DNA of 64,000 bases from NCBI GenBank assembly GCA_964510025.1, contig CAZDZV010000006.1, positions 11,143 to 75,142 of the forward strand, given 5' to 3'. The notes beneath the pieces are model-generated. The model did no database searches. It saw only the letters and a list, made by a program, of their open reading frames with translations, and was not told the DNA's origin. How positions within the stretch are numbered: the first letter of the stretch is position 1; each line of letters opens with the position of its first letter. The DNA is from an uncultured Methanosarcinales archaeon. GTDB lineage: Archaea; Nanobdellota; Nanobdellia; Woesearchaeales; DATDXC01. Made by a program: the position numbers and the translations under genes. Of the stretch, positions 7,363 to 55,579 are shown piece after piece.

Positions 7363-7395
7363 ACCAAATAATTAATAGACTACTATATTAAACTT

Positions 7396-20893: not shown

Positions 20894-20937
20894 AAATCAG
20901 CCGATTATTGAAAAGTCTCTGCTAAAATAATCATAAG

Positions 20938-22667: not shown

Positions 22668-23683
22668 GAAAGAAACCAAAAATATTTTTCTATTTGCCTG
22701 AGGAATATCTTCCGCAAGGCCAGATACCAGAGGATTATACAGAATTCTGGGACTACTGTGTAAAGAACTGGAATGGGTACTATGCGGGAATTCTAGTCTG
22801 GACCCTTAAGACGTACCTATTGCTTAAAGATTATGTTTCATGCAAATTAGTTACAAACATTCCTGAAAAAGGGATAATCATTGCTCATAGAAAATCCTTA
22901 CCTGCAAAACCGAAGCCGAAGCAGCTCTTTGTTTGCATCAAGGCAGATAAGTCAGTACACCCATATTCGCAGATCCATCTGGTGCAAAATTCTTGTGACT
23001 GTCTCTTCAAAAGGTCACCCGGACTGTGGCAGACATACTATGTCCCCCGTTGGCCCCAGGATAAATTGAAGCCAAGGTCAAAATCGAGAGGCACAAGACT
23101 AGAGAATGTTGGTTATTATGGGGTAAGACGGGAGCTGGCCAAAGAGTTACAGTCTAAAAAATTTGAGAGACTTATGCAATCGAACGGTTTTAAGTGGCAT
23201 ATTTTTTCCAATCCGAAGAAGTGGGTTGATTACAGCAAAACAGATGCTATTGTAGCGGTTAGGAGTTTTAAAAAACAGGGATTCAATAATAAGCTAGCGT
23301 CTAAACTATATAATGCGTGGCGAGCAGGTGTACCTGTATTATTGGGGCCAGAGACAGCTTATCAAAATGAGAAAAAAAGCCGGTTTGATTATATGGAAGT
23401 AAATTCAGCAAATGAAATAATCTCAGCACTTAAAAGCTTAAGAAAGAATCATAGGTTATACAAGCAAATGGTGAATAATGGAATTATCCGATCCAAAGAG
23501 GTCAGTCAGAATAAGATTATCGGTCTTTGGAAATCTTTTTTGGTGAATGTTGCAGTTCCTGCATATCGAAGGCACTGTAAAAATCGTATTTCCACTAACA
23601 TGTTCCTGCTGCAGAGATATTTTTATAACGTATATTATCAACTTCATTTTAAATTTAGGTCGAAAATTTTGTATGGCATATAA
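22655..23683 (+). CDS. Hypothetical glycan-locus protein
   Basis: 342 aa. C-terminal region vaguely GT-B-like (VPVLLGPETAYQNE). No confident family. Confidence 0.25.
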   Translation: MDSIRKKPKIFFYLPEEYLPQGQIPEDYTEFWDYCVKNWNGYYAGILVWTLKTYLLLKDYVSCKLVTNIPEKGIIIAHRKSLPAKPKPKQLFVCIKADKSVHPYSQIHLVQNSCDCLFKRSPGLWQTYYVPRWPQDKLKPRSKSRGTRLENVGYYGVRRELAKELQSKKFERLMQSNGFKWHIFSNPKKWVDYSKTDAIVAVRSFKKQGFNNKLASKLYNAWRAGVPVLLGPETAYQNEKKSRFDYMEVNSANEIISALKSLRKNHRLYKQMVNNGIIRSKEVSQNKIIGLWKSFLVNVAVPAYRRHCKNRISTNMFLLQRYFYNVYYQLHFKFRSKILYGI

Positions 23684-24194
23684 TAAAATATTTGGGATAG
23701 GTCTTTCAAAAACTGGGACTACATCTTTAGCTAGGGCCTTGGAGATTTTGGGATTTAGGACTGTTCACTCCCCTAGGAAGTCCTATTTATATGAGAAAAG
23801 AAGAGGCCTTCCATATTTCTCTACATTAGAAGAATATAGGGGTTTTACAGATTTTCCTTGTTGGGCAATATACAAAGAAGTGGATATTTTGTATCCGGGC
23901 AGCAAATTTATCCTAACTGTTCGAAATCCTCATGATTGGTACGTCAGCAGAAAGAAGCATTATAAAGCAAGACTGAAACAGGATATCAAACTTGATTGGG
24001 ATATGAGCAAAAAGTCAATGGATAAACTTCTGAAACATAACCAAGAAGTGATGGGGTATTTTAAGAGAAGAAAAAAAGATTTACTAGTGCTTGATATTGC
24101 AAAGGGAGAAGGTTGGGACAAGCTGTGCCGGTTCCTGCAGGTCCAAGAACCTTCCTTAACATTCCCCCACCTTAACAAGTCAGAATGTCTGTGA
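23673..24194 (+). CDS. Sulfotransferase-family protein (PAPS-dependent)
   Basis: 5'-PSB-like GLSKTGTTSL and 3'-PB-like VRNPHDWYVS. Start moved to ATG 23673 (MAYNKIFGIG...); the ORF-track start at 23547 lies inside the preceding gene. Confidence 0.6.
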   Translation: MAYNKIFGIGLSKTGTTSLARALEILGFRTVHSPRKSYLYEKRRGLPYFSTLEEYRGFTDFPCWAIYKEVDILYPGSKFILTVRNPHDWYVSRKKHYKARLKQDIKLDWDMSKKSMDKLLKHNQEVMGYFKRRKKDLLVLDIAKGEGWDKLCRFLQVQEPSLTFPHLNKSECL

Positions 24195-25051
24195 AACCTA
24201 TTGTTTCCGTGATTATACCTGTCTATAATGATTTCAGGATAGTAAAATGTCTAAAAGCTCTGAAGAATCAGACATATCCAAGAGAAAGATATGAGATCAT
24301 AGTAGTTGACAACAACTCTGACAAACACTTCCTGACAAATCTTAGGAAATATAAAATAAGATTATTGTCTGCAAAAGAAGGGACTTATGCAGCCAGAAAT
24401 AAGGGGATTAAGGCAGCCAAAGGGGATATATTAGCATTTACTGATGCTGACTGCATACCTGCAAAAGAGTGGATAGAAAAAGGGGTAGATGCTATTCGCA
24501 ATCAGGCAGCTGGATTAGTAGCAGGAAAAATTGAGTTGTTTCCAAAAGGAAACAGGCCGACCATTGCAGAGATGTTTGAAATCATTACTGGATTTAGGCA
24601 AGAACTTTATGTTAAAAAATGGCATTTTGGAGCTACAGCAAATGTCTTTACAAAGAAGCAAGTGATTAATAAGGTTGGGCCTTTTAATGATTACCTAATA
24701 TCTGGTGGTGACTTAGAATTCGGAAAAAGGATTTTTGAAGCAGGCTATATGCAAATCTATGCACCTGAAGTTATTGTCTGGCATCCGGCAAGAGGCTCTG
24801 TCTTGAAGATATTGGGAAAGCATCGCAGGGTAGTGAGGGGCATAAACTGCATACAAAAGACTAAATCCATAAAGAAATTATTGGTGGATATTAAGGATGA
24901 CTGGCCGCAGCTGGCAGATTTTAGAGAAATTTTAGGGGATCGACGCCTAAAAAAATTTAGGTTAAAGGCATCTATATTTTTTATTTTACTCCTTGTTCGT
25001 TTTGCACGAACATCACAAAGAATATTTTTTATAGACCGCAAAAATAGCTAA
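24185..25051 (+). CDS. Family 2 glycosyltransferase
   Basis: VSVIIPVYNDFRIVKCLKALKNQTYP ... YEIIVVDNNSD ... TDADCIP. Confidence 0.75.
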   Translation: MSVKPIVSVIIPVYNDFRIVKCLKALKNQTYPRERYEIIVVDNNSDKHFLTNLRKYKIRLLSAKEGTYAARNKGIKAAKGDILAFTDADCIPAKEWIEKGVDAIRNQAAGLVAGKIELFPKGNRPTIAEMFEIITGFRQELYVKKWHFGATANVFTKKQVINKVGPFNDYLISGGDLEFGKRIFEAGYMQIYAPEVIVWHPARGSVLKILGKHRRVVRGINCIQKTKSIKKLLVDIKDDWPQLADFREILGDRRLKKFRLKASIFFILLLVRFARTSQRIFFIDRKNS

Positions 25052-26091
25052 TGAGAAGGAAAGCAGCGCTTTTATTCCCAACATTCCATGGTGGAGGTGC
25101 GGAAGCAGTATGTGCCTGGATATTAGATGCTTTGAAAGGCAGATATGATATAGATTTATTCACCTGTCAAAAAATTACGGCAGAAGAACTTAACAGGTTT
25201 TATGGAACCAAATTATCCAGAAACTCGTTTAGGCTTATTTATAGCAAGCTATTCAATGCGCTTATCCGGATTAACAAAATTTTGCCTTTTGATCCTAATC
25301 TTAGAAGCAGACTGCTAAAAATTACCTTTGAAAAATTTAAGCAAGATTATGATCTTGTTATAAATGGGAAGGATGAAATAGACATCAGTGAAAAAAGTAT
25401 TCATTATATCCATTTTGCAGGCAATCTCATTAAGGGCAAACCATTGCATAAGCATCGTTACATAGCGAATTCCAGAAGTACGGCTAAGCGTGCTGGCTTT
25501 AGGGATATAGGGGTAGTCTATCCGCCCGTGTGTAAAAGGTTTAAAAAAGTTCCCTGGAAATCAAAAGAAGAAGGCTTCATAATAATAGGCAGGATTACAG
25601 AAGAAAAGGGTACACATAAGGCAATTCAAATACTGCAGAAAGTGAGGGCCAAAGGATATGAGGTTAACCTCCATATCGTAGGGACAGTTTATAATTGGCG
25701 CTATTTTGGTTTGGTGAAAAAGATGGCCAGGAAAAGGGATTGGGTGATCCTACATAAGTCAATTTCTAACTATCGGCTTAAAAAGTTGTTGGAAAAGAAT
25801 AAATATGGCATACATTGTAAAGGCGGTGAGCCCTTCGGTATCGATCCTGCGGAAGTGCTTTATTCAGGCGGCATACCGTTTGTACGTAATAAAGGGGGGC
25901 AGACTGAGATTGTCGGAGACAAAAGGCTGATATTCGGGTCCGAGGATGAGGCTGTAGAGAAGATATGCAAGGTGCTTAGCTCAAAAAAAATTCAGGCTCA
26001 TTTATTAAAAAAACTAAATAAAAGAAAAAAAATATTGGGATGCGACAGGTTTAGAGAGAATTTTTTGAAGGCTATCCACAAAATGCAATGA
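25051..26091 (+). CDS. Family 4 (GT-B) glycosyltransferase
   Basis: EX7E-type block EPFGIDPAEVLYSGGIPFV. Confidence 0.65.
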   Translation: MRRKAALLFPTFHGGGAEAVCAWILDALKGRYDIDLFTCQKITAEELNRFYGTKLSRNSFRLIYSKLFNALIRINKILPFDPNLRSRLLKITFEKFKQDYDLVINGKDEIDISEKSIHYIHFAGNLIKGKPLHKHRYIANSRSTAKRAGFRDIGVVYPPVCKRFKKVPWKSKEEGFIIIGRITEEKGTHKAIQILQKVRAKGYEVNLHIVGTVYNWRYFGLVKKMARKRDWVILHKSISNYRLKKLLEKNKYGIHCKGGEPFGIDPAEVLYSGGIPFVRNKGGQTEIVGDKRLIFGSEDEAVEKICKVLSSKKIQAHLLKKLNKRKKILGCDRFRENFLKAIHKMQ

Positions 26092-26915
26092 AGAGAGGCA
26101 TCTATCTCTTAGCAAATGACCAGGTCTTAGATAATACGCTCGCATTAATCAATAGCATACGTTTTTTTGATCCATATGCATCAATTATCATGATACCTTA
26201 CGATTGTCATGATGTCCGCATAACAACTATTCTGAGAGAGAAATATGGCATTCCGAAGTACCGGAATGATTCGCTGCTCAATAGAATTGACCTGAAAATT
26301 AAGGAGTTTTTTGGAAAGAAATTTTTTACCAGACCTAATCAGTTTAGGAAGCAAGCCTGTTGGTTTGGACCTTTTGATGAATTTCTTTATCTAGACACCG
26401 ACATTGTGGTTTTTGAAAGAATAATTAACAATCTAGAACATCTTAAAAACAAGGATTTTGTTTTTTGTGACTATCAGCACAAGAACGGAATAAAATATTT
26501 GTTTAATCCGCCAATCAAGAATGCCTTAGAAAAAGAGGATCTGAAATTTGTTTTTAACGCTGGTTTTTGGGGATCAAGAAAAGAACTGATAACAGAGCGC
26601 AAGCTATATGGCGCACTTGAAGAATGCGCCAAAAATATGAATTTTTTTGATTTTTCAGCAAAAGTTACTGATATGCCAATTTTTAATTATTTAGTTTTAA
26701 GGAAAATAAAAAAAAGAATCAATTTGGTAAGGGATCTAGAAAGAAAAGGACCAGGAAATTGGGCAGGGATGGATCATTTTATCAGAAAAGGGAACCGGCT
26801 TTTTGATCCAAATGTAAAGCAGTACCTCAAATACCTGCATTGGGCTGGGATTAATATCCAAAAAGGTTGTCCTTACTATGATGTATGGAATTACTATCGG
26901 AGATTGAATAAGTGA
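26088..26915 (+). CDS. GT8-like DxD nucleotide-sugar transferase (paralog 2)
   Basis: GIYLLANDQVLDNTLALINSI ... LYLDTDIVVFE. Confidence 0.35.
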   Translation: MKRGIYLLANDQVLDNTLALINSIRFFDPYASIIMIPYDCHDVRITTILREKYGIPKYRNDSLLNRIDLKIKEFFGKKFFTRPNQFRKQACWFGPFDEFLYLDTDIVVFERIINNLEHLKNKDFVFCDYQHKNGIKYLFNPPIKNALEKEDLKFVFNAGFWGSRKELITERKLYGALEECAKNMNFFDFSAKVTDMPIFNYLVLRKIKKRINLVRDLERKGPGNWAGMDHFIRKGNRLFDPNVKQYLKYLHWAGINIQKGCPYYDVWNYYRRLNK

Positions 26916-27667
26916 ATATCTGTTTTTCAACGCTCGCATTGGGAAAAAAGTACCAAGAAATGGCCAAGACCCTTGCCGCTGATATCAAAAAATTCAATCC
27001 AAAAATGAAGATAATTATTTTATCAGACGATACTAAGGTCTTTGAAGATATGGACAATGTGATGGCGATACATCATTGCCAGCAGGGAGTGATGTTCCCT
27101 TACCATGATAAAAGATTTGTTGTAGCTGAAGCGTTGAGACGATTTGACGCTACATTATTTGTAGATGCTGACAGCAGGTTGAACTCGTATGTTGATATAT
27201 CGGGCATATCAAGAGAGGATATATACTGTAACCAGACTGAAAATCTGATAGCTCACATTAAGAAATACAACCCAGATCGTTTATACCATGTAAACAAGAT
27301 AGCCAAGAAAATGTCAATTAATCCCGATAAGGTAACTTATATGGGAGAATCTTTTTTTTTTATCGGAACAAAAAAGATTCAGGATTTTATCTATTATTGG
27401 GGCAAGATAGTAGGATATTTGGAAATTCACAGGATTGTTGCAGGAGCAGGCATTTCGATGGGACTCGCTGCACATAAGGCAGGTATCAAAATATGTGAAT
27501 CAGACAGGTTGCTTACCGCTTCAAGATCCTTTGAACATATCAATATTGCCAAAAAAAAGAGTAAGCAGTCTCTTTACGAATCATTTAAGAACAGGTTCCT
27601 TTACCACTATAGGCTTAATAAAGCTAGGATAAAAGCTATATCAGATTTTGATTTTTACTACAGATAA
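26912..27667 (+). CDS. GT8-like DxD transferase (paralog 3); contains a T10 homopolymer
   Basis: NICFSTLALGKKYQEMAKTLAADI ... LFVDADSRL. Poly-T tract at 27352-27361 inside the CDS. Confidence 0.3.
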   Translation: MNICFSTLALGKKYQEMAKTLAADIKKFNPKMKIIILSDDTKVFEDMDNVMAIHHCQQGVMFPYHDKRFVVAEALRRFDATLFVDADSRLNSYVDISGISREDIYCNQTENLIAHIKKYNPDRLYHVNKIAKKMSINPDKVTYMGESFFFIGTKKIQDFIYYWGKIVGYLEIHRIVAGAGISMGLAAHKAGIKICESDRLLTASRSFEHINIAKKKSKQSLYESFKNRFLYHYRLNKARIKAISDFDFYYR

Positions 27668-28598
27668 TATGAATGAACCTAAGCCTTTTCTCTCAATCGT
27701 GACACCAACATTGGGAAGATTTTCAGAATATTGGCTAGAATCATTGCTGTCAATTGAAGGGGATGTTGAGTTTATCTTGGCATATCCACCACATTCCGAT
27801 ACCCTTACGATAAACGACCTTAGACTAAAGGTCATTATTAGCGATTTTATTGGGGAGGTCATGCAAAGAGCAGCTGGATTAAGGCATGCGAAAGGAAAAT
27901 ATGTTTTAGCATTGGATGACGATGATTATGTGCACCCCAATATAGTTGAATTGGCTAAGGATTATTTTGATAAATATCCCGGAAGCTGGCTTTTTAGGTT
28001 GCAGAAACATGGTATCGATTACAAGAATATGCAGGATATTCGAGCCCCGTGGAAACCTGTCAAAAAAGTCGAGAAGATGAAGCTCTTAGAAATACCCATT
28101 GCTCCCCTAAGAAAAAGGTTTGAACCGATGGCTTTATGGCCCCAGTATAGAAGAAAAGACCATCATGGCATTCATTCAGAAAATTTCGTAGATAGGATAT
28201 GGAGAAACGATTTGGTACAGCCTGCAGTAGATGATTTTTTTGACTGTTTGAAAATTTTTGGACAGGTCAGATATATCCCCCCGAAAAATTCATATGGATT
28301 TGACAGAGTTATGTCCCTTTTTCTGCAGGCCAAATACTTTGAGCCTGGAATAAAAATAGGGCATTGGATTAAAGATTCAGAAGCACAGATAAGAAAAGTA
28401 CATATGCCAAATGAGTTAAAGCCTGCTAGATTCCACTTTCTTTCCCATTTAGTTTTAGTGAAGAAATTTCCCCGATACGGCTACCTTTGGAACTTATTTT
28501 TTGAGACATTTTGGGATATACCCCGAAAAATTGGGAAGGCATTAAAGATCAGACAGCGGCAGAATCATAAACTGGGTAAGACGATTAAAATGAGGTAG
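27648..28598 (+). CDS. GT-A fold glycosyltransferase (GT2-like)
   Basis: LSIVTPTLGRFSEYWLESLLSI ... LALDDDDYVHPN. Confidence 0.45.
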   Translation: MIFTTDNMNEPKPFLSIVTPTLGRFSEYWLESLLSIEGDVEFILAYPPHSDTLTINDLRLKVIISDFIGEVMQRAAGLRHAKGKYVLALDDDDYVHPNIVELAKDYFDKYPGSWLFRLQKHGIDYKNMQDIRAPWKPVKKVEKMKLLEIPIAPLRKRFEPMALWPQYRRKDHHGIHSENFVDRIWRNDLVQPAVDDFFDCLKIFGQVRYIPPKNSYGFDRVMSLFLQAKYFEPGIKIGHWIKDSEAQIRKVHMPNELKPARFHFLSHLVLVKKFPRYGYLWNLFFETFWDIPRKIGKALKIRQRQNHKLGKTIKMR

Positions 28599-28612
28599 TC
28601 TGCAAGAAGAAA

Positions 28613-29476
28613 TTGGCTAACGAAACATATATTTCCGTGATTGTCCCCGTATATAACGGAGAGAAGACCATTGAGAGATGTTTATGCTCACTTGCAAATC
28701 AGCGCTATCCTAAAAAAAGATATGAAGTGATAATAGTCGACAATAATTCCACTGATGATACAAAAAAAATAATTGAGAAATATCCAGCTAAATATTTGTG
28801 TGAAAAAAAAAGAGGTTCTTATGCTGCAAGAAATAAAGGTATTAGATATGCTAAAGGCAGAATCTTGGCATTTACTGATGCAGACTGCATGGCTCATGTG
28901 AATTGGATAGCAGATGCTGTTAGGGAATTTTCAGACAAAAAAACCGGATGCGTCGCCGGAAGGATAGGTGCAGGTCAAAGAAATAGCCATATAGAAAGGT
29001 ATATTGCTAAAAAGAAGCTGCTTATACAAAAGAAAGAACCATGCGGTCTGCCGCTCCCCTATGCAAAGACAGCAAACGCTTTTTATAGAAAAGAAGTTTT
29101 TGACAAGATAGGATTGTTTGAAGAATGGATTTCCGGAGGAGATGCTGATCTCTGCTGGAGGATGCAGAAGAAAACAGAATATGGGCTGAAGTTTTCGCGT
29201 GCGCTAGTTATACATAAACATAGGACCTCAACAGCAGGATTGTTTAAGCAGTGCTTTAAGTGGGGTATAGGCAATGCCTTCTTGAAAAAAAAATACCGAG
29301 AAATGCCGCAAATATCATTTAGGGGCCGTTTGTGGATTATTTGCCGGATCCTCTTCGGTTTGCCCATGCTTTTTTATCTGATCCTAAAAAAGGACTCATC
29401 TGACAGATTATTTGATAGGCTAGCATTTATTGGATGGCATTTAGGAATGTTTATCGGATTTATAAAAAAAAGATGA
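28613..29476 (+). CDS. Family 2 glycosyltransferase (paralog of 24185-25051)
   Basis: ISVIVPVYNGEKTIERCLCSLANQRYP ... YEVIIVDNNSTDDT ... TDADCMA. Confidence 0.75.
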   Translation: MANETYISVIVPVYNGEKTIERCLCSLANQRYPKKRYEVIIVDNNSTDDTKKIIEKYPAKYLCEKKRGSYAARNKGIRYAKGRILAFTDADCMAHVNWIADAVREFSDKKTGCVAGRIGAGQRNSHIERYIAKKKLLIQKKEPCGLPLPYAKTANAFYRKEVFDKIGLFEEWISGGDADLCWRMQKKTEYGLKFSRALVIHKHRTSTAGLFKQCFKWGIGNAFLKKKYREMPQISFRGRLWIICRILFGLPMLFYLILKKDSSDRLFDRLAFIGWHLGMFIGFIKKR

Positions 29477-30303
29477 AAGGTCCAGATTTCATTGTCTTAG
29501 GAGCGGCAAAAGCAGGAACTACCTCTCTTTATCATTACTTAAAGCAGCATCCGGCAATTTTTATTCCAAGTAAAAAGGAATTAAGATTTTTTACTAACAG
29601 GACAGCTGATATTGACGAATATCTGAGGTTTTTCGTGGAGAAATCTGATAAAGTAGCCGGGGAAGTTTCAAGTGATTACTTGTATTCCGGACCCGATACT
29701 GCTAAAAGGATAAAGAAATATTTTCCAGGTGTAAAGCTTATAGCTATACTGCGAAATCCTATTGATAGGGCATATTCAGAATATTGTATGGATCTAAGAC
29801 TTGGAAAAGTCACAGGAAGTTTTGCTGATGAGTTGGGGGGGAAATTCAAAACAAGGTATCTTAATCAGGGATTTTATCATAAGCAGATAAAAAGATATTT
29901 AAAAATATTTGATGAGAAACAATTTAGGGTTTGGCTTTATGATGACCTGTGCCAGGATCCTATGAAGCTATTACAGGAAATTTTTAAATATATCCGTGTA
30001 GATACTAACTTTATACCCAATATCAAAATAAAACATAATAAAGGGGCTGTACCAAAAAATATTTTTGTTCAGGTTTTAGTCCAAAGACCTAATATATTAA
30101 GAAAAGTATTTAGAAATTTTTCAGCACTATTTTTTCCTTTACATATTAGACAAAGAATTCGTAATAGTATAATAAATCACAATTTAAGGAAAATTCTTCC
30201 TATGGATTCAGACATAAGAAGGTCTTTATTAGAGTTTTATAGATCTGACATAATTAAGTTACAGACCCTAATGAATCGTGATTTGTCTTCATGGTTGCGC
30301 TAA
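29473..30303 (+). CDS. Sulfotransferase-family protein (PAPS-dependent)
   Basis: 5'-PSB LGAAKAGTTSL and textbook 3'-PB ILRNPIDRAYSEY. Start moved to ATG 29473 (MKGPDFIVLG...). Confidence 0.7.
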   Translation: MKGPDFIVLGAAKAGTTSLYHYLKQHPAIFIPSKKELRFFTNRTADIDEYLRFFVEKSDKVAGEVSSDYLYSGPDTAKRIKKYFPGVKLIAILRNPIDRAYSEYCMDLRLGKVTGSFADELGGKFKTRYLNQGFYHKQIKRYLKIFDEKQFRVWLYDDLCQDPMKLLQEIFKYIRVDTNFIPNIKIKHNKGAVPKNIFVQVLVQRPNILRKVFRNFSALFFPLHIRQRIRNSIINHNLRKILPMDSDIRRSLLEFYRSDIIKLQTLMNRDLSSWLR

Positions 30304-30309
30304 CATAAT

Positions 30310-31218
30310 ATGCAAATCCAAATATCTGCCATAGTATGTACATATAACAGAAGCAATTATCTTAAGAGAACTTTGAAAAGCTTGATTAAACAGAGTTTAG
30401 ATAACCAGGTGTATGAAATAATTGTGGTAGATAACGCATCAACAGATAATACTAAGAAGATGGTTTCAGAATATTCAAGAATTAATTTTAAATACAGCTA
30501 TGAGAGCAAATTGGCTTTATCTATTGCTAGAAATACAGGTTTAGAAAAAGCAAAAGGTAAATATGTTGCATATATCGACGATGATGCAATAGCTGATGAA
30601 TATTGGTTACAGAATATTCTAAGTTCTTTTAAAAAAGAGAAGAATGTTGGCTGTATCGGAGGGAGGGTAAAACCAATTTGGGAAAGCAAAAAACCAGTAT
30701 GGTTGGATTACAACCTATACCCTTTTCTCAGCTTGCTGGATAAGGGAAAGAAAAGATATATCTTTTCGGAATCTGAGTGGTTCTCCGGGACCAATATGGC
30801 TTTCAGAAAGGATTTGTTAAGAAAAATAGGGGGGTTTCCCGTACATCTCGGTAGAAAAGGCAATTATCTTTTGTCCGGGGAAGAGGTTTATGTCAAGCAG
30901 AAAATCGAGAACCTAGGCTACTTAGCCCTCTATAATCCAGAAGCTCTTGTGCATCACAGTATACCTGGCAGTAGGCTTGCAAAGCAGTGGTTTATTGGAA
31001 GGTTGTTTTGGCAAGGCGTTACCAATGCCGTAATGGAGCCAAAAAAACCTTTTTTGCACCAGCTAAGATCGGGAATCGCTATGTCCCTGCCCGTTTTCTT
31101 CAACCTAGATTCACTTTCTGCCTTGTTCGACAGTTCAGATGATCCAAAGCTTTTCTATGAGAAATGCAGGGTGATTGGCAGATTTGGCTATAGCATGAAG
31201 ATGCTAAGATTGATATGA
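30310..31218 (+). CDS. Family 2 glycosyltransferase
   Basis: ISAIVCTYNRSNYLKRTLKSLIKQS ... YEIIVVDNASTDNT ... IDDDAIA. Confidence 0.75.
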   Translation: MQIQISAIVCTYNRSNYLKRTLKSLIKQSLDNQVYEIIVVDNASTDNTKKMVSEYSRINFKYSYESKLALSIARNTGLEKAKGKYVAYIDDDAIADEYWLQNILSSFKKEKNVGCIGGRVKPIWESKKPVWLDYNLYPFLSLLDKGKKRYIFSESEWFSGTNMAFRKDLLRKIGGFPVHLGRKGNYLLSGEEVYVKQKIENLGYLALYNPEALVHHSIPGSRLAKQWFIGRLFWQGVTNAVMEPKKPFLHQLRSGIAMSLPVFFNLDSLSALFDSSDDPKLFYEKCRVIGRFGYSMKMLRLI

Positions 31219-32231
31219 AAATCGCGTATCTATCAGACAACTGGCCATGGTTTGGTAGATATAGCTCATATTCTCGATTAATTCACTATATTAAGAAGCT
31301 TTCAGATGTTGATGTTGTAGAGACAAAATACACTTTACCCAGGAAGGTCATGGGAAAGATTTATTCTACTGTCCAGGGCGTCGGCAGAAAAGACTCAGTG
31401 TTTGCTGCATCTGAATTTCTGTTCAGGAAAAAAATAAACAGGGGACTGGCCCATGTCCTGTATTACGATACGCATTATCCGATGTGGAAAAAAGAGCTGA
31501 AAAATGTTGTTACCACCATACATCATCCGCCAGACAGGATGCTTCCGGCCCTTATGAAGATGAATCTTAGAAATGTTTCCAAAGCCATCGTACTATCTAG
31601 AAAAAATATTGAATTCTACAAAGAAGCTGTGGGTGAAAATAATGTTGTATTCATCCCTCATGGTGTAGACACTGAATTTTTCAGCCCTGCTGAAACCTGC
31701 GATGAACAAAGAATGCTTTTCGTAGGTCAAAATGGAAGGAATACTGTAATGTTTTCAAAAGTTGTAAAAAAATTGCTCAGACATAATCCTGATTTGATAT
31801 TTGATTTGCTAGTAGTAAAAGACAAGAGGACTGTCTCAGGATTGAAAGAACTTAGGCACCTTCCTAATGTTAACTGGCTTTCTACTAAGAGCAGCGAAGA
31901 GCTTAGAGATATTTACCAGAGAAGTTATCTGTTAGTGATGCCAATGGAAAGCTGCTCAGCCAACAACGCTATTGTTGAGTCTTTGGCATGCGGGCTGCCT
32001 GTAGTGACAACTGATGTTGGTGGTATCAGGGATTATGGTGGAGGAACTGTCTATAAGACAGCAGATAATGTTCAGGAGACTGTTGAACTTGTAGAAAAGT
32101 ATTTGGAAGATAGATCATTTCGGGATAAGATCGCAAAAGACTGCAGGTATTTTGCAGTTGAAATTCTGGATTGGAAGAAAATTGCAATATTGCATATGGA
32201 TTTTTACATTCAGATGGCCTATGAAAAATAG
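31215..32231 (+). CDS. Family 4 (GT-B) glycosyltransferase
   Basis: C-terminal ESLACGLPVVTTDVGG block of the EX7E region. Confidence 0.65.
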   Translation: MKIAYLSDNWPWFGRYSSYSRLIHYIKKLSDVDVVETKYTLPRKVMGKIYSTVQGVGRKDSVFAASEFLFRKKINRGLAHVLYYDTHYPMWKKELKNVVTTIHHPPDRMLPALMKMNLRNVSKAIVLSRKNIEFYKEAVGENNVVFIPHGVDTEFFSPAETCDEQRMLFVGQNGRNTVMFSKVVKKLLRHNPDLIFDLLVVKDKRTVSGLKELRHLPNVNWLSTKSSEELRDIYQRSYLLVMPMESCSANNAIVESLACGLPVVTTDVGGIRDYGGGTVYKTADNVQETVELVEKYLEDRSFRDKIAKDCRYFAVEILDWKKIAILHMDFYIQMAYEK

Positions 32232-33129
32232 TCTTGAAAAGAAAAAACCACTGGCGACAGTTATTGTACCCACATACAACCATGCCTGTTTCATCGAAGA
32301 TGCACTGGATAGCCTGCTGAATCAGAGCTATGAAGAAATTCAGATAATTGTCGTGGATGATGGCTCAACAGACCAGACAAGCAAGATTTTGACAAAATAC
32401 AAAAAAGACATTAAATATGTTTATCAAAAGAATTCAGGCCAGGCCGCTGCAATCAAAAAAGGCATAGGGTTGGCAAAAGGCACATATATCTTCATCTTAA
32501 ATGCTGATGATATGTTCATGGCAAATAAGATTGGCAAAGTTGTTTCAGTATTCGAATCCTGCCCGACGGTAACGCATGTCTCGCATCCTGTCCTGGAATG
32601 GGATGGAACATCTAGAAAAATAGAGCCTATACCCAGCCAGATATTGAATAAAGTAATCGATGGAAAAAGACTGTTAGAGTATTTTTACCTGAACAGGTTC
32701 TACGGCGGTGGATCTACCGTAGCTGGCAGAGCATCTATCTGGAAAGAAATCCATATTCCAAGGCAGGTTGATATGTTCATTGATGAATATCTGGCCATCT
32801 CATCTTTAAGAACCGGTTCAGGCTATTTTATAGGTACACCCCTCTCCATATACCGGATTCATGATTCCAACTATTCCAGAATCCCAATAGCCAGGAAGGC
32901 TCTAAGAAATATGAAGGCAAATAAGGCCATACTGGATCAGCTGGACGGTGAGATAAAAATAATGTATGAACTAAAAACAAGGATAGCATATCTGAAATAT
33001 AAGGAGATTATATGCAAAAAAGAGCTCGCGGATGTGATCTCTTTGTGGCAATTTCTATTTAGGCATAAGAGCCTGATGAGATGGAAGACAATCAAAAATT
33101 ATCGGATCCTGCATAGAACAGTCCTATGA
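32221..33129 (+). CDS. Family 2 glycosyltransferase
   Basis: ATVIVPTYNHACFIEDALDSLLNQSY ... IQIIVVDDGSTDQT ... NADD. Start moved to ATG 32221 (MKNSLEKKKPLATVIVP). Confidence 0.75.
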   Translation: MKNSLEKKKPLATVIVPTYNHACFIEDALDSLLNQSYEEIQIIVVDDGSTDQTSKILTKYKKDIKYVYQKNSGQAAAIKKGIGLAKGTYIFILNADDMFMANKIGKVVSVFESCPTVTHVSHPVLEWDGTSRKIEPIPSQILNKVIDGKRLLEYFYLNRFYGGGSTVAGRASIWKEIHIPRQVDMFIDEYLAISSLRTGSGYFIGTPLSIYRIHDSNYSRIPIARKALRNMKANKAILDQLDGEIKIMYELKTRIAYLKYKEIICKKELADVISLWQFLFRHKSLMRWKTIKNYRILHRTVL

Positions 33130-34034
33130 AAACCAGTGTAATCATCCCTAGCTATAGAAGACCGGCATGCCTGCAAAAATGCTTAAACGCATTGGAGAAC
33201 CAGTCAGTTGCGCCGGAAGAAATAATTGTGGTTCTCAGAAAAAATGATATAGAGACTGTCAGCATGGTAAAAAGAGAGAATTGCAGGGCTATTTATGTAA
33301 ATAGTCCTGGGCAGGTAGCTGCACTCAACACTGGATTAGATAATGCCTTAGGCGACATAATAGCGATTACAGACGATGATGCTGTACCCCACAAGGATTG
33401 GATTAAACTGATTGAAAGGCACTTTAGAAATGACAATGATTTGGCTGGACTCGGGGGGAAGGACAATCTTTACATCGATTACAGGTTGTTGAGGGGTAAA
33501 AAAAGGCTGGTTGGAAAGATCCGATGGTTTGGAAGCATAGTGGGAAATCACCATCTGGGATACGGGCGACCCAGGGAGGTGGACCATCTTAAAGGCGTCA
33601 ATATGAGTTTCCGCAAGGAAGCTATCAAAGATTTACGCTTCGATAAGCGGTTAAGGGGGCTGGGTGCCCAGGTTAGAAATGACACTGCCTTCTGCTTACA
33701 GCTCAAGAGAAAAGGCGCCAAGCTGGTATATGACCCAGAAGTTGTCGCTGACCATTTTCAGGCACCTAGATTTGAGAGGGATAAACGTGGAAATTTTGAC
33801 TATAGTGCTGTATTAGACGGTGCTTTTAACGAGACTCTTGTTCTATTAGAGTACCTCCCTTTCTTTGGAAAGATCTGCCACCTTTTTTTTGCCTTACTTA
33901 CGGGGAATATCTTCACCCCGGGCCTGATCCAGTTCATCCGAATCCTGCCAAGAGAAAAAAAAGATGCTGTTCATAGGTTTTTGGCTTCTTTGGAAGGCAG
34001 AAAGAAAGCCATTCTATTAACATGGATAAAGTAG
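33126..34034 (+). CDS. Family 2 glycosyltransferase
   Basis: TSVIIPSYRRPACLQKCLNALENQS ... ITDDDAVP. Confidence 0.7.
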   Translation: MKTSVIIPSYRRPACLQKCLNALENQSVAPEEIIVVLRKNDIETVSMVKRENCRAIYVNSPGQVAALNTGLDNALGDIIAITDDDAVPHKDWIKLIERHFRNDNDLAGLGGKDNLYIDYRLLRGKKRLVGKIRWFGSIVGNHHLGYGRPREVDHLKGVNMSFRKEAIKDLRFDKRLRGLGAQVRNDTAFCLQLKRKGAKLVYDPEVVADHFQAPRFERDKRGNFDYSAVLDGAFNETLVLLEYLPFFGKICHLFFALLTGNIFTPGLIQFIRILPREKKDAVHRFLASLEGRKKAILLTWIK

Positions 34035-35155
34035 CTTTCATAGTCAGCCACCCGATCCAGTATTTCTCTCCGCTATTTAGATTACTATCGAAAAAAATGG
34101 ACCTTACGGTCATTTATCTATCAGATGAAACATTGAAGACTTTCATGGATAAAGAATTTTCAGCAGCGATTAAGTGGGATATTCCTTTGTTAAAAGGGTA
34201 TAGGTACAAATTACTAAAAAATAATTCACCTGTCCATTCTGTTTCCAGGCCACCTTTTGGTTTATTAAATCTTGGGATTCTAAATGAGATAACCAATAAA
34301 AAATATGATTGCATAATAGTCCATGGGTGGCATTATGTAAGCCATTGGTTAGTCTACATCCTATGTATCCTTAGGCAGCTGCCTTTCTATATTAGGTCTG
34401 AATCTCCCCTAAACCAGGAAAAAACAAAGCCTGATTGGAAGATTTACATCAAAAAAATTTTACTTGGATATTTATTTCGTAGGGCAGCTGGTCTTCTGGC
34501 GATTGGAACTCAAAACAGGAGATTCTATGGGTTCTATGGGGTAGAAAATAAAAAAATCTTTTATGCACCTTATTCTGTCGATAATGATAGGCTTATGCCA
34601 AAAAAACGTAAAACTAAAAAAGACAAAATAGTAATCTTGTTTGTTGGGAAGCTTATAGAGAAAAAAAGGCCTATGGATCTGTTGCAGGCCTTTGAAAGGA
34701 TAAGTTATGAAACAAAAGCCCTGTATTTTGTAGGCGAAGGAAAAATGAAGAGACAGCTGCAAAAATATACGAAAAAAAATCATCTAAAAAACGTATTTTT
34801 CCCTGGATTTGTAAATCAGACAGCCCTCCCAGACTATTATAATATGGCGGATATATTTGTGCTTCCGTCTGGAATAGGAGAAACCTGGGGGCTGGTAGTA
34901 AACGAAGCAATGTGTTTTGGCCTCCCAGTTATAGTATCGGATATTTCAGGATGCAGCACAGATTTGGTAAAACAAGGCAAAAATGGCTACATATTTAAAA
35001 CAGGAGATATAGGACAATTGTCACGATATTTGAACATGCTTATAAAAAATAAGAAACTAAGAAACCAGATGGGATCTAGGTCTCTCAAAATCATAGGTCA
35101 ATTTAGCTGCAAAGCAGCAGCCGAAGGGATTGCTAAGGCTGTCAAGAGAAAATGA
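34022..35155 (+). CDS. Family 4 (GT-B) glycosyltransferase
   Basis: ADIFVLPSGIGETWGLVVNEAMCFGLPVIVSD (EX7E). Confidence 0.75.
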   Translation: MDKVAFIVSHPIQYFSPLFRLLSKKMDLTVIYLSDETLKTFMDKEFSAAIKWDIPLLKGYRYKLLKNNSPVHSVSRPPFGLLNLGILNEITNKKYDCIIVHGWHYVSHWLVYILCILRQLPFYIRSESPLNQEKTKPDWKIYIKKILLGYLFRRAAGLLAIGTQNRRFYGFYGVENKKIFYAPYSVDNDRLMPKKRKTKKDKIVILFVGKLIEKKRPMDLLQAFERISYETKALYFVGEGKMKRQLQKYTKKNHLKNVFFPGFVNQTALPDYYNMADIFVLPSGIGETWGLVVNEAMCFGLPVIVSDISGCSTDLVKQGKNGYIFKTGDIGQLSRYLNMLIKNKKLRNQMGSRSLKIIGQFSCKAAAEGIAKAVKRK

Positions 35156-36963
35156 AGCCATTTTTAAAAATAAGGAAAATTTTAGGACTTTTCAGAAAAC
35201 TCGAAATCCGCTTAGTTTACTTTGCGATCCCTATAGTTCTTTCGTTTCTAATAGCATTTTTTGAAGGCCTAAGCATCGGACTGCTAATACCCTTGGCTAA
35301 AGGGATTGTGGAGATGGAATTCAGTTTTGTGAGAAACCTTCCTTTTTTTAAGACAATCAATGACCTTTTCCCCCAGTTGCTAGCGCATAATAGGGCGATC
35401 TTTGTGACTCTTGTACTGATCATATTCATCTCAGCAGTCTTAAAAAATGTCTTCACCTATCTATCTTCCGTCATAGTAAGATATCAAATACGGCAAGCTG
35501 CGCATAAAGCAAGAAAGCACATATTCAATAGATATCTAAGTTTTGGCAAGCTTTTTTATGACAGGAATAATGAGGGCCATCTGCAAAGCATACTGCTCAG
35601 CTATACAAACTCGATCATAGGTCAGCTAGGCTCTATCTCCCACCTCATGAACGGCTCCGCTATGCTTCTTGTGTATTTTATTATGATGTTTTCCATATCC
35701 TGGAGATTGACTGTATTCATTCTGCTGATATTTCCGGTCCTGAACCTATCACTGAAATATCTGATTGCGAAGATAAAGAAAACCTCAAAGTTCTCGGCAG
35801 ATGCTAGGAAGAGGATGAACAGGGCAGTCTTCAACGTGCTTTCGTCTATACCGATTATAAAGGCATATACGAAAGAGGAGGAGGAAAAGAAGAACTTTGA
35901 CAAAATGAGCGAAGAAATGTCAAAATGGGACTTCAGTATGGATAAAAAATACGACCTGATAGGGCCAATGCAGGAAGTTATAACCTTGATAGCAGTACTG
36001 TTGGTAATCTCAGCCATGGCCTTCTTGTTTATAAAAACTAAGACAGGTGATATCTACGGGTTTGCCGTATTTTTTTATCTGTTGAAGAAATCCATGGGCA
36101 CGTTTGGTATCTTTAACAGCTTCAAGGGATCATTGGCAAAAGCCTCCGGACAGGTGCAAGAAATAATGCATATTCTCAGTGAGAAGAATAAGCATTATGT
36201 AAAAGGAGGAAGAAAAGAATTCAATGGATTGGAATCAGAGATTAAGCTGAGTAGGCTAAGCTTCCATTATGACTCAAAAGTTCCCATAATCAAGGACATA
36301 TCCTTCTCTATCAGAAAAGGAAAGATGACGGCTATTGTAGGGCCAACTGGCTCAGGTAAGACAACAATAATCAATCTTCTTCTGAGATTTTATGAATGCC
36401 CTGAAGGTTCTATATTTGTAGATGGGCGGGATATCAAGGAGTTCACGTTAAAATCGATAAGAAAGCATATGGCCCTTGTCAGCCAGGATACTATGCTTTT
36501 CAATGATACATTGAGAAAAAATATGACCTACGGAATAGACAGACAGGTGTCTCAGCAGGAGTTGGCTAGGATAGCAAAAAAGGCCCGGATCTATGACTAC
36601 ATCAAGAAGCTTCCGCGTGGCTTTGAAACGGTTATAGGTGATAGGGGAGTGCAGCTTTCTGGAGGTGAAAAGCAGAGGATATCGATTGCAAGAGCCCTCT
36701 TGAAGAACGCCGATATATTGATACTAGATGAAGCCACAAGCTCCCTGGACTCCAGAACAGAAAAGCTCATTCAGGAAGCTATCTACGAAGCTGTGAAGGG
36801 GAGAACCTCTATAGTCATCGCACACCGGCTTTCGACTATAAAGAACGCTGACAAGATTATCATCATTGAGAAAGGCAAGATAATTGAAAAAGGAAAACCC
36901 AAGGAACTGCTTGGAAAAAAAGGCAGATTCTATCAATATTGGCAGGAGCAGAAGTTTGAATAA
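35152..36963 (+). CDS. ABC exporter, fused permease-ATPase (MsbA/lipid-linked glycan flippase type)
   Basis: Six N-terminal TM helices. Walker A GPTGSGKTT, signature LSGGEKQRISIARAL, Walker B ILILDEATSSLD, H-loop IVIAHRLSTI. Confidence 0.8.
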   Translation: MKPFLKIRKILGLFRKLEIRLVYFAIPIVLSFLIAFFEGLSIGLLIPLAKGIVEMEFSFVRNLPFFKTINDLFPQLLAHNRAIFVTLVLIIFISAVLKNVFTYLSSVIVRYQIRQAAHKARKHIFNRYLSFGKLFYDRNNEGHLQSILLSYTNSIIGQLGSISHLMNGSAMLLVYFIMMFSISWRLTVFILLIFPVLNLSLKYLIAKIKKTSKFSADARKRMNRAVFNVLSSIPIIKAYTKEEEEKKNFDKMSEEMSKWDFSMDKKYDLIGPMQEVITLIAVLLVISAMAFLFIKTKTGDIYGFAVFFYLLKKSMGTFGIFNSFKGSLAKASGQVQEIMHILSEKNKHYVKGGRKEFNGLESEIKLSRLSFHYDSKVPIIKDISFSIRKGKMTAIVGPTGSGKTTIINLLLRFYECPEGSIFVDGRDIKEFTLKSIRKHMALVSQDTMLFNDTLRKNMTYGIDRQVSQQELARIAKKARIYDYIKKLPRGFETVIGDRGVQLSGGEKQRISIARALLKNADILILDEATSSLDSRTEKLIQEAIYEAVKGRTSIVIAHRLSTIKNADKIIIIEKGKIIEKGKPKELLGKKGRFYQYWQEQKFE

Positions 36964-38053
36964 TAAATTAAGAGTTCTCTTGATAGGCAATTATGCTGCC
37001 AATAATCAAAAAAGCATGCAAAGATTTGCCACTATGATGAAAAAAGGGCTGGAAAAAAGAGGGCATTATGCTATTTTAGCTATACCTACAGCGATTTTTG
37101 GAAAATTTTTTGCAGATACCAATAAGGGGCTCGGTAAATGGCTAGCATATATTGATAAGTTTATTGTTTATCCCTTCTATTTGATCAGACAAGCGAAAAA
37201 ATTCGACCTTGTGCATATTTGCGACCATGGTAATTCCATCTACTCGTTATTTACCGGAAGAACGCCGTGTGTGGTTACCTGCCACGACACAATGGCTATC
37301 AGATGCGCTTTAGGAAAGATAAAAGAAAATAAGCTTCATTTAACTGGAAGAATATTCCAGAAGCTGATAGCCTTCGGCATAAAAAAATCTGACTATGTCG
37401 TATGCATATCAAAAAAAACCAAATCGGATCTGCTAAAAATACTACGTATAGACAGGATTAGCTTGGTTTATAATGGACAGGTGTTTAAGCCGATGCCAAA
37501 AAAAGTATCAAAAAGATATCTCAGGAAGCTTAAAGTCAATATCCCTTACTTTCTGCATGTAGGCAATAACAATTGGTATAAGAACCGGATCGGCGTTTTA
37601 AAGATATTTAGCGATCTAGAACTGCCAGGTTACGGCTTGGTGATGGTGGGCGCTTCTTTTTCAAGGGGCATGAAGGATTTTGTAGCTAAACATAATTTAC
37701 CTGTAAGAGAAATCACATCAGCTGACGATAATGAGCTGGGGGCATTGTATTCTAATGCTGAAGCGCTGATATTTCCGTCTCTGGAAGAAGGTTTTGGTTG
37801 GCCTATAATTGAGGCCCAGGCATGCGGATGTCCTGTCTTCACCACTGACAGAAATCCGATGAAAGAGGTTGCAGGAGATGGCGCTATATATTTTCAGAAT
37901 CCCGAGAGCCACAGACAATGTGCGGATATTATTATCAATAATTTGGCGAAAGCAAGGAATAAAATAAAAAAAGGTTTAGAAAACGCTGCAAGTTTCAAAC
38001 CGAGTTACATGATAGATGGTTATATCAAAATCTACAAGTCATTGAAAAAATGA
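36884..38053 (+). CDS. Family 4 (GT-B) glycosyltransferase; start uncertain
   Basis: KLRVLLIGNY N-terminal beta1 strand and EGFGWPIIEAQACGCPVFTTD. The ORF-track ATG at 36884 overlaps the ABC gene by 80 nt. A TTG/TTA start near 36968-36982 or ATG 37016 is possible. Confidence 0.65.
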   Translation: MKKENPRNCLEKKADSINIGRSRSLNNKLRVLLIGNYAANNQKSMQRFATMMKKGLEKRGHYAILAIPTAIFGKFFADTNKGLGKWLAYIDKFIVYPFYLIRQAKKFDLVHICDHGNSIYSLFTGRTPCVVTCHDTMAIRCALGKIKENKLHLTGRIFQKLIAFGIKKSDYVVCISKKTKSDLLKILRIDRISLVYNGQVFKPMPKKVSKRYLRKLKVNIPYFLHVGNNNWYKNRIGVLKIFSDLELPGYGLVMVGASFSRGMKDFVAKHNLPVREITSADDNELGALYSNAEALIFPSLEEGFGWPIIEAQACGCPVFTTDRNPMKEVAGDGAIYFQNPESHRQCADIIINNLAKARNKIKKGLENAASFKPSYMIDGYIKIYKSLKK

Positions 38054-38170
38054 GGATTCTTTACATTGTCTAAATGAAGGATATAATAGCTCAAGCTACA
38101 ACAAGATGAAACTAAGTACGATACAAATTAAAGAAAGGATTGTAGGTTTGTTCAGTTTAGTAGGAACAAG

Positions 38171-38935
38171 ATGTTAATCAACATGCTAAAAAAGAGTGAA
38201 TATGTGCGAAAAAAATACCATGGCATAAAAGATTTTTTTTATGGCCTTAAATACTTTTCAGGAACTAAAAAAGGTCTAAAATACTTTATAGTTGTATGTC
38301 AAGCAAGGACAGGCAGTACATTATTGATGGACTTATTAGGTTCACACCCGAATATTAAAGTAGACCATCACAGCTTTTTTAAGATAGATAATTTGAAGCA
38401 TAAAATAACCCAGCAAAAAGCAAATACGCGTAAATTCTGCAGGGGATTCAAGTTTAGGTTGTACGATGATGGAAAGGAATATGATTTTAGCAAAATGTAT
38501 CAATTCTTTTGCTCTCTGGATAATGCAGATATTAAGATGATCCACCTAATCAGAAAAAACCAGCTAAGACAGTCCCTTTCCGCAGAAGTGGTAGACTATT
38601 ACAAGAAAATTGGATTGACAAGGCTTCATTCAAAAGATAAGAATCCTGAGATACCGAAAATAAAGGTAGATATCCAAAAGACGCTAAATCGGATTAATTA
38701 TTCAAGAAAGTTGCTAAAGGCAGAGAATGATCTGCTCAAGCATTTCCGCCATCATACAGTTAATTATGAAAAAGATCTTTTGCATTCAACCGACCATCAA
38801 AAAACATCAGACAAGATATTTGCATTTTTGGGCCTCCCCTCTGCTAAGGTCAGTTCAGATTATCGAAAGACAAGTATTGACAACCCATCAGAATATATTG
38901 ATAATTTTAATCAATTGAGGTTGCACTACGAATGA
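38171..38935 (+). CDS. Stf0-type sulfotransferase-like protein
   Basis: VVCQARTGSTLLMDLLGSHPNI (P-loop-like RxGSTxL) and IHLIRKNQLRQSLS resemble Stf0-family PAPS-binding blocks. Confidence 0.5.
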   Translation: MLINMLKKSEYVRKKYHGIKDFFYGLKYFSGTKKGLKYFIVVCQARTGSTLLMDLLGSHPNIKVDHHSFFKIDNLKHKITQQKANTRKFCRGFKFRLYDDGKEYDFSKMYQFFCSLDNADIKMIHLIRKNQLRQSLSAEVVDYYKKIGLTRLHSKDKNPEIPKIKVDIQKTLNRINYSRKLLKAENDLLKHFRHHTVNYEKDLLHSTDHQKTSDKIFAFLGLPSAKVSSDYRKTSIDNPSEYIDNFNQLRLHYE

Positions 38936-52966: not shown

Positions 52967-52975
52967 TTCTTCACC

Positions 52976-55563: not shown

Positions 55564-55579
55564 TATTTCCCCAGTATAG

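Follow-up and report, generated by a model that had tools for sequence, protein, structure and literature searches.

Three predicted sulfotransferases of different subfamilies in a glycan-assembly gene cluster of a DPANN archaeon

Within a 64-kb stretch of archaeal DNA (GenBank contig CAZDZV010000006.1, positions 11,143 to 75,142 of the forward strand; below, the window, with coordinates counted from its first letter), three sulfotransferase genes, here called ST1, ST2 and ST3, sit within one long glycan-assembly operon. Their predicted products are assigned to three subfamilies: Sulfotransfer_4 (ST1), a heparan-sulfate-sulfotransferase/XssA-like group (ST2) and a NodH/Stf0/TPST-like group (ST3), TPST denoting tyrosylprotein sulfotransferase. 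The preferred reading, to which a probability of roughly 0.65 is given, is that all three are soluble cytoplasmic enzymes dependent on 3′-phosphoadenosine 5′-phosphosulfate (PAPS), which decorate a surface glycan built by the 29-gene operon of an uncultured DPANN archaeon (Woesearchaeota/Nanoarchaeota). The archaeon, on this evidence, probably makes a sulfated surface glycan. The three enzymes are unexceptional; their families are large and routinely annotated, and clusters of this design are already known. This one is of interest for its DPANN host, for an origin that looks bacterial, for carrying three different sulfotransferases and for its difference from haloarchaea, which use a sulfatase-fold route.

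The three sulfotransferases and their operon

The three open reading frames (ORFs) lie on the forward strand at 23673-24194 (ST1, 173 aa), 29473-30303 (ST2, 276 aa) and 38171-38935 (ST3, 254 aa), as an initial annotation of the region had reported, and all of the 5′-phosphosulfate-binding (5′-PSB) and 3′-phosphate-binding (3′-PB) motifs that it quoted are found in them. In a six-frame regular-expression scan of the window (ORFs of at least 90 codons), PSB-like and 3′-PB-like motifs co-occur in these three proteins only. The 5′-PSB loop, [KR]-x-G-[ST]-T, follows the first β-strand and reads SKTGTTSL in ST1, AKAGTTSL in ST2 and ARTGSTLL in ST3; the Arg and Ser of the 3′-PB motif stand about eight residues apart in all three and are invariant or near-invariant in the family alignments. 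The hidden Markov model (HMM) check suggested by the annotation came out in favor of its assignment, with all three proteins scoring above the Pfam gathering threshold for Sulfotransfer_1, _3 or _4. No NCBIfam model matches any of them. Of the two relationships that the annotation had offered, paralogous or distinct, the second holds: the proteins fall into three distinct subfamilies, and a paralogous origin was rejected because pairwise BLASTP aligns only the PAPS loops, over 21-24 residues (E 1e-3 to 4e-3). A crude hydropathy test detected no long, strongly hydrophobic stretch in ST1-3 (highest 19-residue mean 1.19, in the PSB strand of ST3), consistent with soluble cytoplasmic enzymes.

Of the three predicted sulfotransferases, ST2 is the most clear-cut. 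It is a Sulfotransfer_1/_3-family protein of the heparan-sulfate-sulfotransferase-like (carbohydrate) type, 276 aa when counted from the second ATG; the longest ORF begins 39 nt earlier, at 29434. Matches to Sulfotransfer_1 (PF00685, 56.6 bits, cut-off 22) and Sulfotransfer_3 (PF13469, 55.3 bits, cut-off 27) both lie well above threshold, and the binding motifs are GAAKAGTTSL at the 5′-PSB loop (Lys13, Thr16-Ser18) and LRNPIDRAYSEY at the 3′-PB site (Arg94/Ser102). The protein aligns over its full length with 3rnl, a solved but uncharacterised Alicyclobacillus sulfotransferase (E 8e-49), and its residues 4-180 match the sulfotransferase domains of heparan-sulfate NDST1 (4e-12), 3-OST-5 (4e-11) and 3-OST-1/-3, with E values ranging from 4e-12 to 9e-7. 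A homologue search returned 1082 relatives. In a family alignment of 38 members, Gly10, Lys13, Thr16, Arg94 and Arg99 are invariant and Gly15, Thr17, Ser18, Glu64, Ser66 and Ser102 nearly so. Glu64 lines up with the Glu of the NDST FEKS motif, which acts as catalytic base in NDST and 3-OST. ST2, NDST, 3-OST and 3rnl have in common the PSB Lys, the E-x-S Glu and the 3′-PB Arg/Ser pair. Unlike NDST and 3-OST, ST2 is a soluble prokaryotic protein that lacks a Golgi anchor or deacetylase domain, and its C-terminal 100 residues are shared with the bacterial family only.

ST1 is a compact member of the Sulfotransfer_4 family (PF17784, 114.9 bits, cut-off 22.8, E 6e-33), and its ATG overlaps the stop codon of the upstream gene by 11 nt. 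It carries the 5′-PSB loop GLSKTGTTSL (Lys13), Asp60 in a TDFP motif, the 3′-PB motif VRNPHDWYVS (Arg84/Ser92) and a C-terminal block, GEGWDKLCxFL...FPHxN. Its sequence matches in the PDB are sulfotransferases only (5tiz, 4e-14; SgdX2, 8y9p, 1.5e-13; 9kf1, 5e-10), the schistosome oxamniquine sulfotransferases among them at 4e-14 to 2e-12. Alignment to these solved relatives resolves three blocks, comprising the PSB loop, the region from TDxP to the 3′-PB motif and the C-terminal GW..LC.FL...FPH.N. The Sulfotransfer_4 enzymes 4mua/5tiz and SgdX2 (8y9p) share with ST1 the PSB loop, TDxP, the R-x(7)-S form of the 3′-PB motif and the C-terminal G-W-x-x-L-C-x-F-L block. ST1 departs from these solved enzymes in its shortened middle segment, in the lack of a C-terminal extension and in its location in a glycan operon.

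A metagenome scan with ST1 found one locus only, on a contig labeled L088, where a homologue of 43-45% identity is equally short and retains Lys13, Thr16/17, Asp60, Arg84 and Ser92. Asp60 is common to the solved relatives and to this homologue. The matching length indicates that the short form of ST1 is a conserved variant and not a truncation. At this locus (688-7537 of L088) the homologue is flanked by three paralogous ORFs of about 400-455 aa, two of them with an N-terminal hydrophobic segment, and by FeoB, DtxR-like and Lrp-like genes. No glycosyltransferases occur near it within 688-7537, and ST1-type enzymes are therefore not always linked to glycans.

ST3 required more sensitive searches. 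Its motifs are QARTGSTLL, a 5′-PSB loop with Arg in place of Lys (Arg46-Thr-Gly-Ser-Thr), and IRKNQLRQSLS at the 3′-PB site (Arg128/Ser137). A direct sequence search of the PDB gave nothing meaningful and a word-indexed homologue search gave two relatives only; an exhaustive profile search collected 6338 cluster representatives at E <= 1e-3, 386 of them at E <= 1e-30. Across a family alignment of 58 members, in which Arg46 and Gly48 are invariant, 56 match Sulfotransfer_3 (PF13469) and 22 match Stf0 (PF09037); ST3 itself has no match to the Stf0 HMM. Searched against the PDB, the family profile finds the "LPS sulfotransferase NodH" 9vki at 1.4e-8, tyrosylprotein sulfotransferases at about 3e-3 and Stf0 (1tex) at 0.026. 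An AlphaFold model built from a three-sequence input reaches a mean predicted local distance difference test (pLDDT) score of 71.9 and a predicted template modeling (pTM) score of 0.74. With this model, the best 28 Foldseek matches are sulfotransferases, nearly all of them structures bound to 3′-phosphoadenosine 5′-phosphate (PAP, or pAp), and the first kinase appears at E 0.011. The earlier description of ST3 as Stf0-like holds, then, at the level of fold, as seen by Foldseek and the family profile, but does not extend to membership of PF09037, and the profile lies nearer to NodH. Identity to any solved member of the NodH/LpsS/Stf0 group (PDB 9vki, 1tex), which consists of bacterial enzymes that sulfate carbohydrates, is at most 19%.

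The operon that contains these genes spans 18715-46229 on the forward strand and comprises 29 co-directional ORFs in 27.5 kb, mostly with overlapping stop and start codons. Nearly all junctions overlap or leave a gap of at most 44 nt, the sole larger gap being one of 117 nt before ST3, and the tight or overlapping spacing extends over 17070-46229. By content, the cluster holds 14 glycosyltransferases recognized by Pfam, the three sulfotransferases, one ATP-binding cassette (ABC) exporter, one Wzy_C protein, one acetyltransferase, one DUF4330 protein (start 43224), one phosphoglycosyl transferase and seven ORFs that match no Pfam family. The sulfotransferase genes had been described as interleaved with glycosyltransferases, and so they are: eight GT2 genes (starts 24185, 27648, 28613, 30310, 32152/32218, 33126, 40056 and 42374) and six GT4 genes (starts 25051, 31215, 34022, 36884, 38932 and 44441), all on the forward strand, lie around and between ST1, ST2 and ST3. 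For the GT4 gene at 36884-38053 the longest ORF has a TTG start and shares 80 nt with the ABC exporter gene, by far the largest overlap in the cluster, and its true start is uncertain.

Further components, all likewise on the forward strand, complete the cluster. The first cluster gene (18715-20118) encodes a polytopic membrane protein with a borderline match to Wzy_C (PF04932), a domain of the O-antigen ligase/polymerase/PglL type. A fused ABC exporter of the MsbA/HepA/PglK type, with transmembrane and nucleotide-binding domains in one chain (35152-36963; PF00664 and PF00005), is the presumed flippase of the lipid-linked glycan; it scores 504 bits against HepA_fam_ABC, 422 against MsbA and 246 against PglK in NCBIfam, every one under its equivalog cut-off. 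The presumed priming enzyme is a polyprenyl-phosphate phosphoglycosyl transferase of the Bac_transf family (45618-46229, 203 aa; PF02397, E 3e-58), whose score of 230 bits against TIGR03025 (EPS_sugtrans) falls under the cut-off because the protein consists of the catalytic domain only. A hexapeptide-repeat acyl/acetyltransferase (41821-42384; PF00132, E 1.6e-12) could add a second type of decoration to the glycan besides sulfation. The seven ORFs that match no Pfam family (262, 274, 303, 342, 275, 251 and 271 aa) occupy 20105-23683, 26088-27667 and 41018-41833. Several of them have DxD-like motifs (YIDADC, YLDTDIV, FVDADS, FDSDIL) and one has a GDS motif, MLGDSVLNGG. The set probably comprises glycosyltransferases of no assigned class together with an SGNH-type esterase or acyltransferase.

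A working order can be proposed for these parts. The Bac_transf enzyme would prime polyprenyl or dolichyl phosphate with a sugar-1-phosphate, and up to 14 or more glycosyltransferases would then lengthen the chain on the cytoplasmic face of the membrane. On that same face, the three sulfotransferases and the hexapeptide acetyltransferase would modify specific hydroxyl or amino groups. The MsbA/PglK-type ABC exporter would flip the finished lipid-linked glycan, which the Wzy_C protein would polymerise or transfer to an acceptor. Sulfation is placed before flipping because PAPS is cytoplasmic, an order that agrees with the one established for Halobacterium salinarum (PMC11980604). That the three sulfotransferases are unrelated suggests that each has an acceptor position of its own, and the product may be multiply sulfated, as the annotation had inferred.

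Relation to known glycan-sulfation systems

Among described systems, the xss (synechan) cluster of Synechocystis sp. PCC 6803 comes closest; it contains eight glycosyltransferases and two sulfotransferases of different subfamilies, XssA and XssE (PMC8205485). The xss sequence was taken from plasmid pSYSM for comparison. ST2 matches XssA at 31% identity over 140 residues by blastp (E 4e-16) and at 33.8% by tblastn (E 7e-15); for ST1 and ST3 the comparison gave nothing significant with either XssA or XssE. Both loci interleave PAPS-type sulfotransferases of different subfamilies with glycosyltransferase genes in one cluster (GT2, GT4 and GT25-like in xss), and the XssA homologue ST2 likewise lies inside a glycosyltransferase-rich cluster. 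The present cluster differs from xss in its DPANN archaeal host, in having three sulfotransferases instead of two and in lacking an XssQRS regulator. It also has an MsbA/PglK-type ABC exporter and a threshold-level Wzy_C protein, whereas the Wzx/MOP flippase, PCP and OPX families were not detected among its ORFs in the Pfam and NCBIfam scans.

Sulfated glycans have been documented chemically in Archaea, and the sole enzymes assigned to their synthesis so far, Agl30 and Agl31, have a sulfatase-type fold. These two proteins (VNG1056C and VNG1057C) were genetically proven in 2025 to be N-glycan sulfotransferases of Halobacterium salinarum; they belong to the alkaline-phosphatase/sulfatase superfamily (IPR017850), resemble the sulfatases 5G2U and 6HHM, and act on the dolichol-phosphate-linked glycan before it is flipped (PMC11980604). 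The statement in the initial annotation that archaeal glycan sulfotransferases are essentially uncharacterised has thereby become outdated (PMC11980604). It still applies to archaeal enzymes of the PAPS type: a 2024 review lists Pfam-predicted sulfotransferases in Woesearchaeota and Pacearchaeota, none of them characterised (PMC11625862). Agl30/Agl31 and ST1-3 are alike in being archaeal and in being encoded inside a glycan gene cluster, and Agl30/Agl31 are different enzymes for different positions. ST1-3, in contrast, match only families with the PAPS-binding sulfotransferase fold and are mechanistically unrelated to the Halobacterium pair. AglB, moreover, anchors the Halobacterium cluster, whereas the scanned ORFs of the present window yielded no AglB/STT3 gene.

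The cluster provides three intact candidate sulfotransferases from three subfamilies in one operon as targets for recombinant assay and for producing glycans in heterologous hosts. A further suggestion from it is that DPANN archaea are able to take up entire surface-glycan pathways from Bacteria, charge-adding decorations among them, with a bearing on the interaction between episymbiont and host.

Host, origin and competing explanations

The genes that flank the cluster are archaeal. NCBIfam equivalogs above their cut-offs include aIF-2 (807 bits), Trm1, RtcA, an archaeal riboflavin synthase (ribC_arch), TFS, an archaeal signal peptidase I (sigpep_I_arch) and a universal archaeal PUA protein; a match to CTP-dependent riboflavin kinase falls under its cut-off. 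For aIF5B, identity to the best matches is 63-75%, and those of them that carry a source name are all Woesearchaeota, Nanoarchaeota/Nanoarchaeia or "archaeon". Together, these matches and the archaeal flank genes identify the host as a DPANN archaeon. Two Woesearchaeota relatives keep the Trm1-aIF5B-PUA gene order and have no ParB-PHP-glycan cluster within 10 kb, so the cluster is lineage-specific.

Those relatives of the sulfotransferases that could be placed are bacterial. Two of the closest metagenome homologues of ST2 (54% and 48% identity) adjoin genes for SmpB or a DbpA-type helicase, both of which we take to be bacterial. Among species-representative genomes 567 relatives of ST2 were confirmed, and the best 80 are all from Bacteria, mostly Cyanobacteria, at 34-42% identity. 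Plasmid-borne relatives of ST1, ST2 and ST3 are bacterial as well. In composition, the cluster has 38.6% GC and the flanks 40.6-42.1%, and its tetranucleotide usage correlates with that of the flanks at r 0.88-0.96, compared with 0.73-0.78 between the flanks and a mobile restriction-modification island elsewhere in the window. With its Bac_transf enzyme, ABC flippase, Wzy_C protein and ST2 relatives, the pathway seems to be of bacterial type and bacterial origin and does not resemble native N-glycosylation of the Agl type, and the cluster is likely an old horizontal acquisition of bacterial-type genes that has since settled in the host genome. The initial annotation had spoken of a candidate archaeal glycan sulfation pathway, a phrase that the flank equivalogs and aIF5B bear out for the host but that suits the apparently bacterial pathway less well.

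Two genes upstream of the cluster may be connected with it. A PHP-domain phosphoesterase gene (17879-18718, forward strand) shares 4 nt with the first gene of the cluster, and a gene for a ParB/Noc-like protein (17070-17882, forward strand; ParB_N and HTH_ParB, parB_part 90 bits) overlaps the PHP gene by another 4 nt, so that the same transcription unit may begin with it. The NCBIfam and PDB matches place the PHP protein in the 3′,5′-nucleoside bisphosphate (pAp) phosphatase/RNase AM family: it scores 240.7 bits against NF041577 (E 1.6e-71, cut-off 400) and 196.6 bits against RNase RNM, and its best solved relative is 2yb1 (1.4e-38), the pAp phosphatase Cv1693. The same family takes in 5′-3′ exoribonucleases of the RNase AM type. 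Judging by these matches, the protein may remove the PAP left by the sulfotransferases. As the by-product of PAPS-dependent sulfotransfer, pAp is an inhibitor of sulfotransferases (PMC8268124), which makes the position of the PHP gene beside the cluster suggestive. Related Woesearchaeota do not have the ParB-PHP-cluster arrangement beside aIF5B. A role for the PHP phosphatase as a general part of sulfotransferase clusters was considered and rejected, as 1.3 Mb around 80 bacterial ST2 homologues contained no PHP homologue.

Several explanations compete with that of PAPS-dependent glycan sulfation. The possibility that ST1-3 are P-loop kinases or other P-loop NTPases misread as sulfotransferases, which the initial annotation had named as the outcome that would overturn its proposal, is effectively refuted by the HMM, motif and fold searches. 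Kinase families are missing from the Pfam and NCBIfam matches of all three proteins, and the Walker A motif GxxxxGK[ST] is found in none of them, its only occurrence in the window being in the ABC transporter. Pfam, PDB sequence, profile and fold evidence all give sulfotransferases, which make up every PDB sequence match and rank over every kinase in both fold searches. The structure prediction that the annotation had recommended succeeded for ST3, whose model has a fold nearer to sulfotransferases than to P-loop kinases, and failed for ST1. It is very improbable, too, that mis-assembly or a binning error has attached a bacterial cluster to an archaeal contig. Such a chimera would agree with the bacterial type of the parts (Bac_transf, the MsbA-like ABC protein, Wzy_C) and the bacterial affinity of the nearest ST2 relatives, with a GC content 2-3.5 points under that of the flanks and with the missing cluster at the syntenic place in related Woesearchaeota. 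Yet it would require two false junctions, since archaeal equivalog genes stand at either end of the cluster on a single contig, and it would break translationally coupled genes, given the 4-nt overlaps that join the first cluster gene to the PHP gene and the PHP gene to the ParB-like gene; nor would it fit the tetranucleotide correlations given above, in which the cluster stands closer to the flanks than the restriction-modification island does.

A number of observations weigh against the preferred reading. ST1 is 40-85 residues shorter than its solved relatives, and these include small-molecule, not glycan, enzymes, small molecules being the known acceptors of the solved Sulfotransfer_4 enzymes; its single-sequence AlphaFold (AF2) model, at pLDDT 36, is unusable. 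The Wzy_C match of the first cluster protein is borderline (32.3 bits, cut-off 31.7), as is that of ST3 to Sulfotransfer_3 (PF13469; 29.1 bits, cut-off 27, residues 40-87 only), although for ST3 the assignment is confirmed by the family profile and by the predicted fold. ST3 is also the only one of the 58 family members with His (His67) in a column that is Glu in 55, and it exchanges the family Cys64 for Val and Trp121 for Ile. A motif scan of the window gave neither an ATP-sulfurylase nor an APS-kinase motif, the ORFs scanned against Pfam or NCBIfam include no such enzyme, sulfate transporters are likewise missing from the window, and a survey of Woesearchaeota found 2 of 19 genomes that might convert sulfate to PAPS (PMC5994134), a capability that is thus present in the phylum but rare. 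The link of the PHP gene to sulfation, finally, is a lead only, and its membership of the system is uncertain. One alternative, unlikely in our estimate, is that the sulfotransferases are real but that one or more of them act on a non-glycan acceptor such as a metabolite, a lipid or protein tyrosine, their operon position reflecting co-regulation or chance. Against it, all three are translationally coupled to glycosyltransferase genes or within 117 nt of them in one 29-gene operon, the characterised relatives of ST2 are carbohydrate sulfotransferases and ST2 is homologous to XssA, and the best profile match of the ST3 family is NodH, an enzyme of lipopolysaccharide or Nod factor. Quite unlikely, in turn, is that the genes are acquired passengers, non-functional because a reduced DPANN genome could not supply PAPS, with ST3 perhaps catalytically dead through its Glu-to-His exchange. 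The bacterial placement of ST2 relatives (two metagenome homologues, the best 80 genome matches) and of plasmid-record relatives of all three, the scarcity of PAPS genes in Woesearchaeota and their absence from the window, and the departure of ST3 from its family at three near-invariant columns all speak for it. All three ORFs are intact, however, with every PAPS-contact residue retained, and the compositional resemblance of the cluster to the host flanks speaks for a long-standing presence under selection. PAPS genes, moreover, seldom lie beside bacterial sulfotransferase genes, the 1.3 Mb around the 80 ST2 homologues containing a single APS-kinase motif, and their absence from the window is therefore uninformative.

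The exchange at His67 bears on the same question. ST3 has His66-His67 where its family has Gly-Glu, a replacement that, with the failure to match the Stf0 HMM, separates it from the NodH/LpsS/Stf0 group; the column aligns with the Glu of TPST "CGEE" and of NodH "HDEIF". Across sulfotransferase families (SULT, NDST and 3-OST structures), either His or Glu serves as the catalytic base at the equivalent position, and His67 need not, therefore, inactivate ST3. The substitution may be a functional swap or an inactivation, and the residue changes in ST3 taken together suggest either that its active site has diverged or that its acceptor is another one. An extended form of the preferred reading would portray a reduced Woesearchaeota cell coated with a multiply sulfated glycan, similar to glycosaminoglycans or synechan, made by a horizontally acquired bacterial-type pathway; PAPS would be made by the cell for this purpose alone or supplied by a partner organism, the co-expressed PHP protein would clear the inhibitory pAp, and the coat would mediate attachment to a host cell or recognition by it. 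No earlier PAPS-type system for glycan sulfation in Archaea would then precede this one, which would differ from the sulfatase-fold route of Agl30/Agl31. This picture as a whole is doubtful.

Other features of the window

Rfam and tRNA scans of the window were empty. The mobile island mentioned above (52037-58977) has a low GC content (29.5%) and encodes a DpnII restriction endonuclease, a D12-class N6-adenine methyltransferase, an AAA_15/AAA_21 ATPase, a second N6/N4 methyltransferase and two recombinases of the phage-integrase family. Four large proteins predicted to be secreted or membrane-anchored are encoded at 228-5581 and 8005-9669. The protein from 228-2774 combines Laminin_G_3 with MopE-type Cys-rich metal-binding repeats, and the other three have no family match; all four may be surface or S-layer proteins, to which the glycan could be attached. 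On the reverse strand, 59724-61688 encodes a polytopic membrane protein of 654 aa with a match to PTPS_related (PF10131, E 1.4e-37), which we suspect to be a GT-C-like glycosyltransferase.

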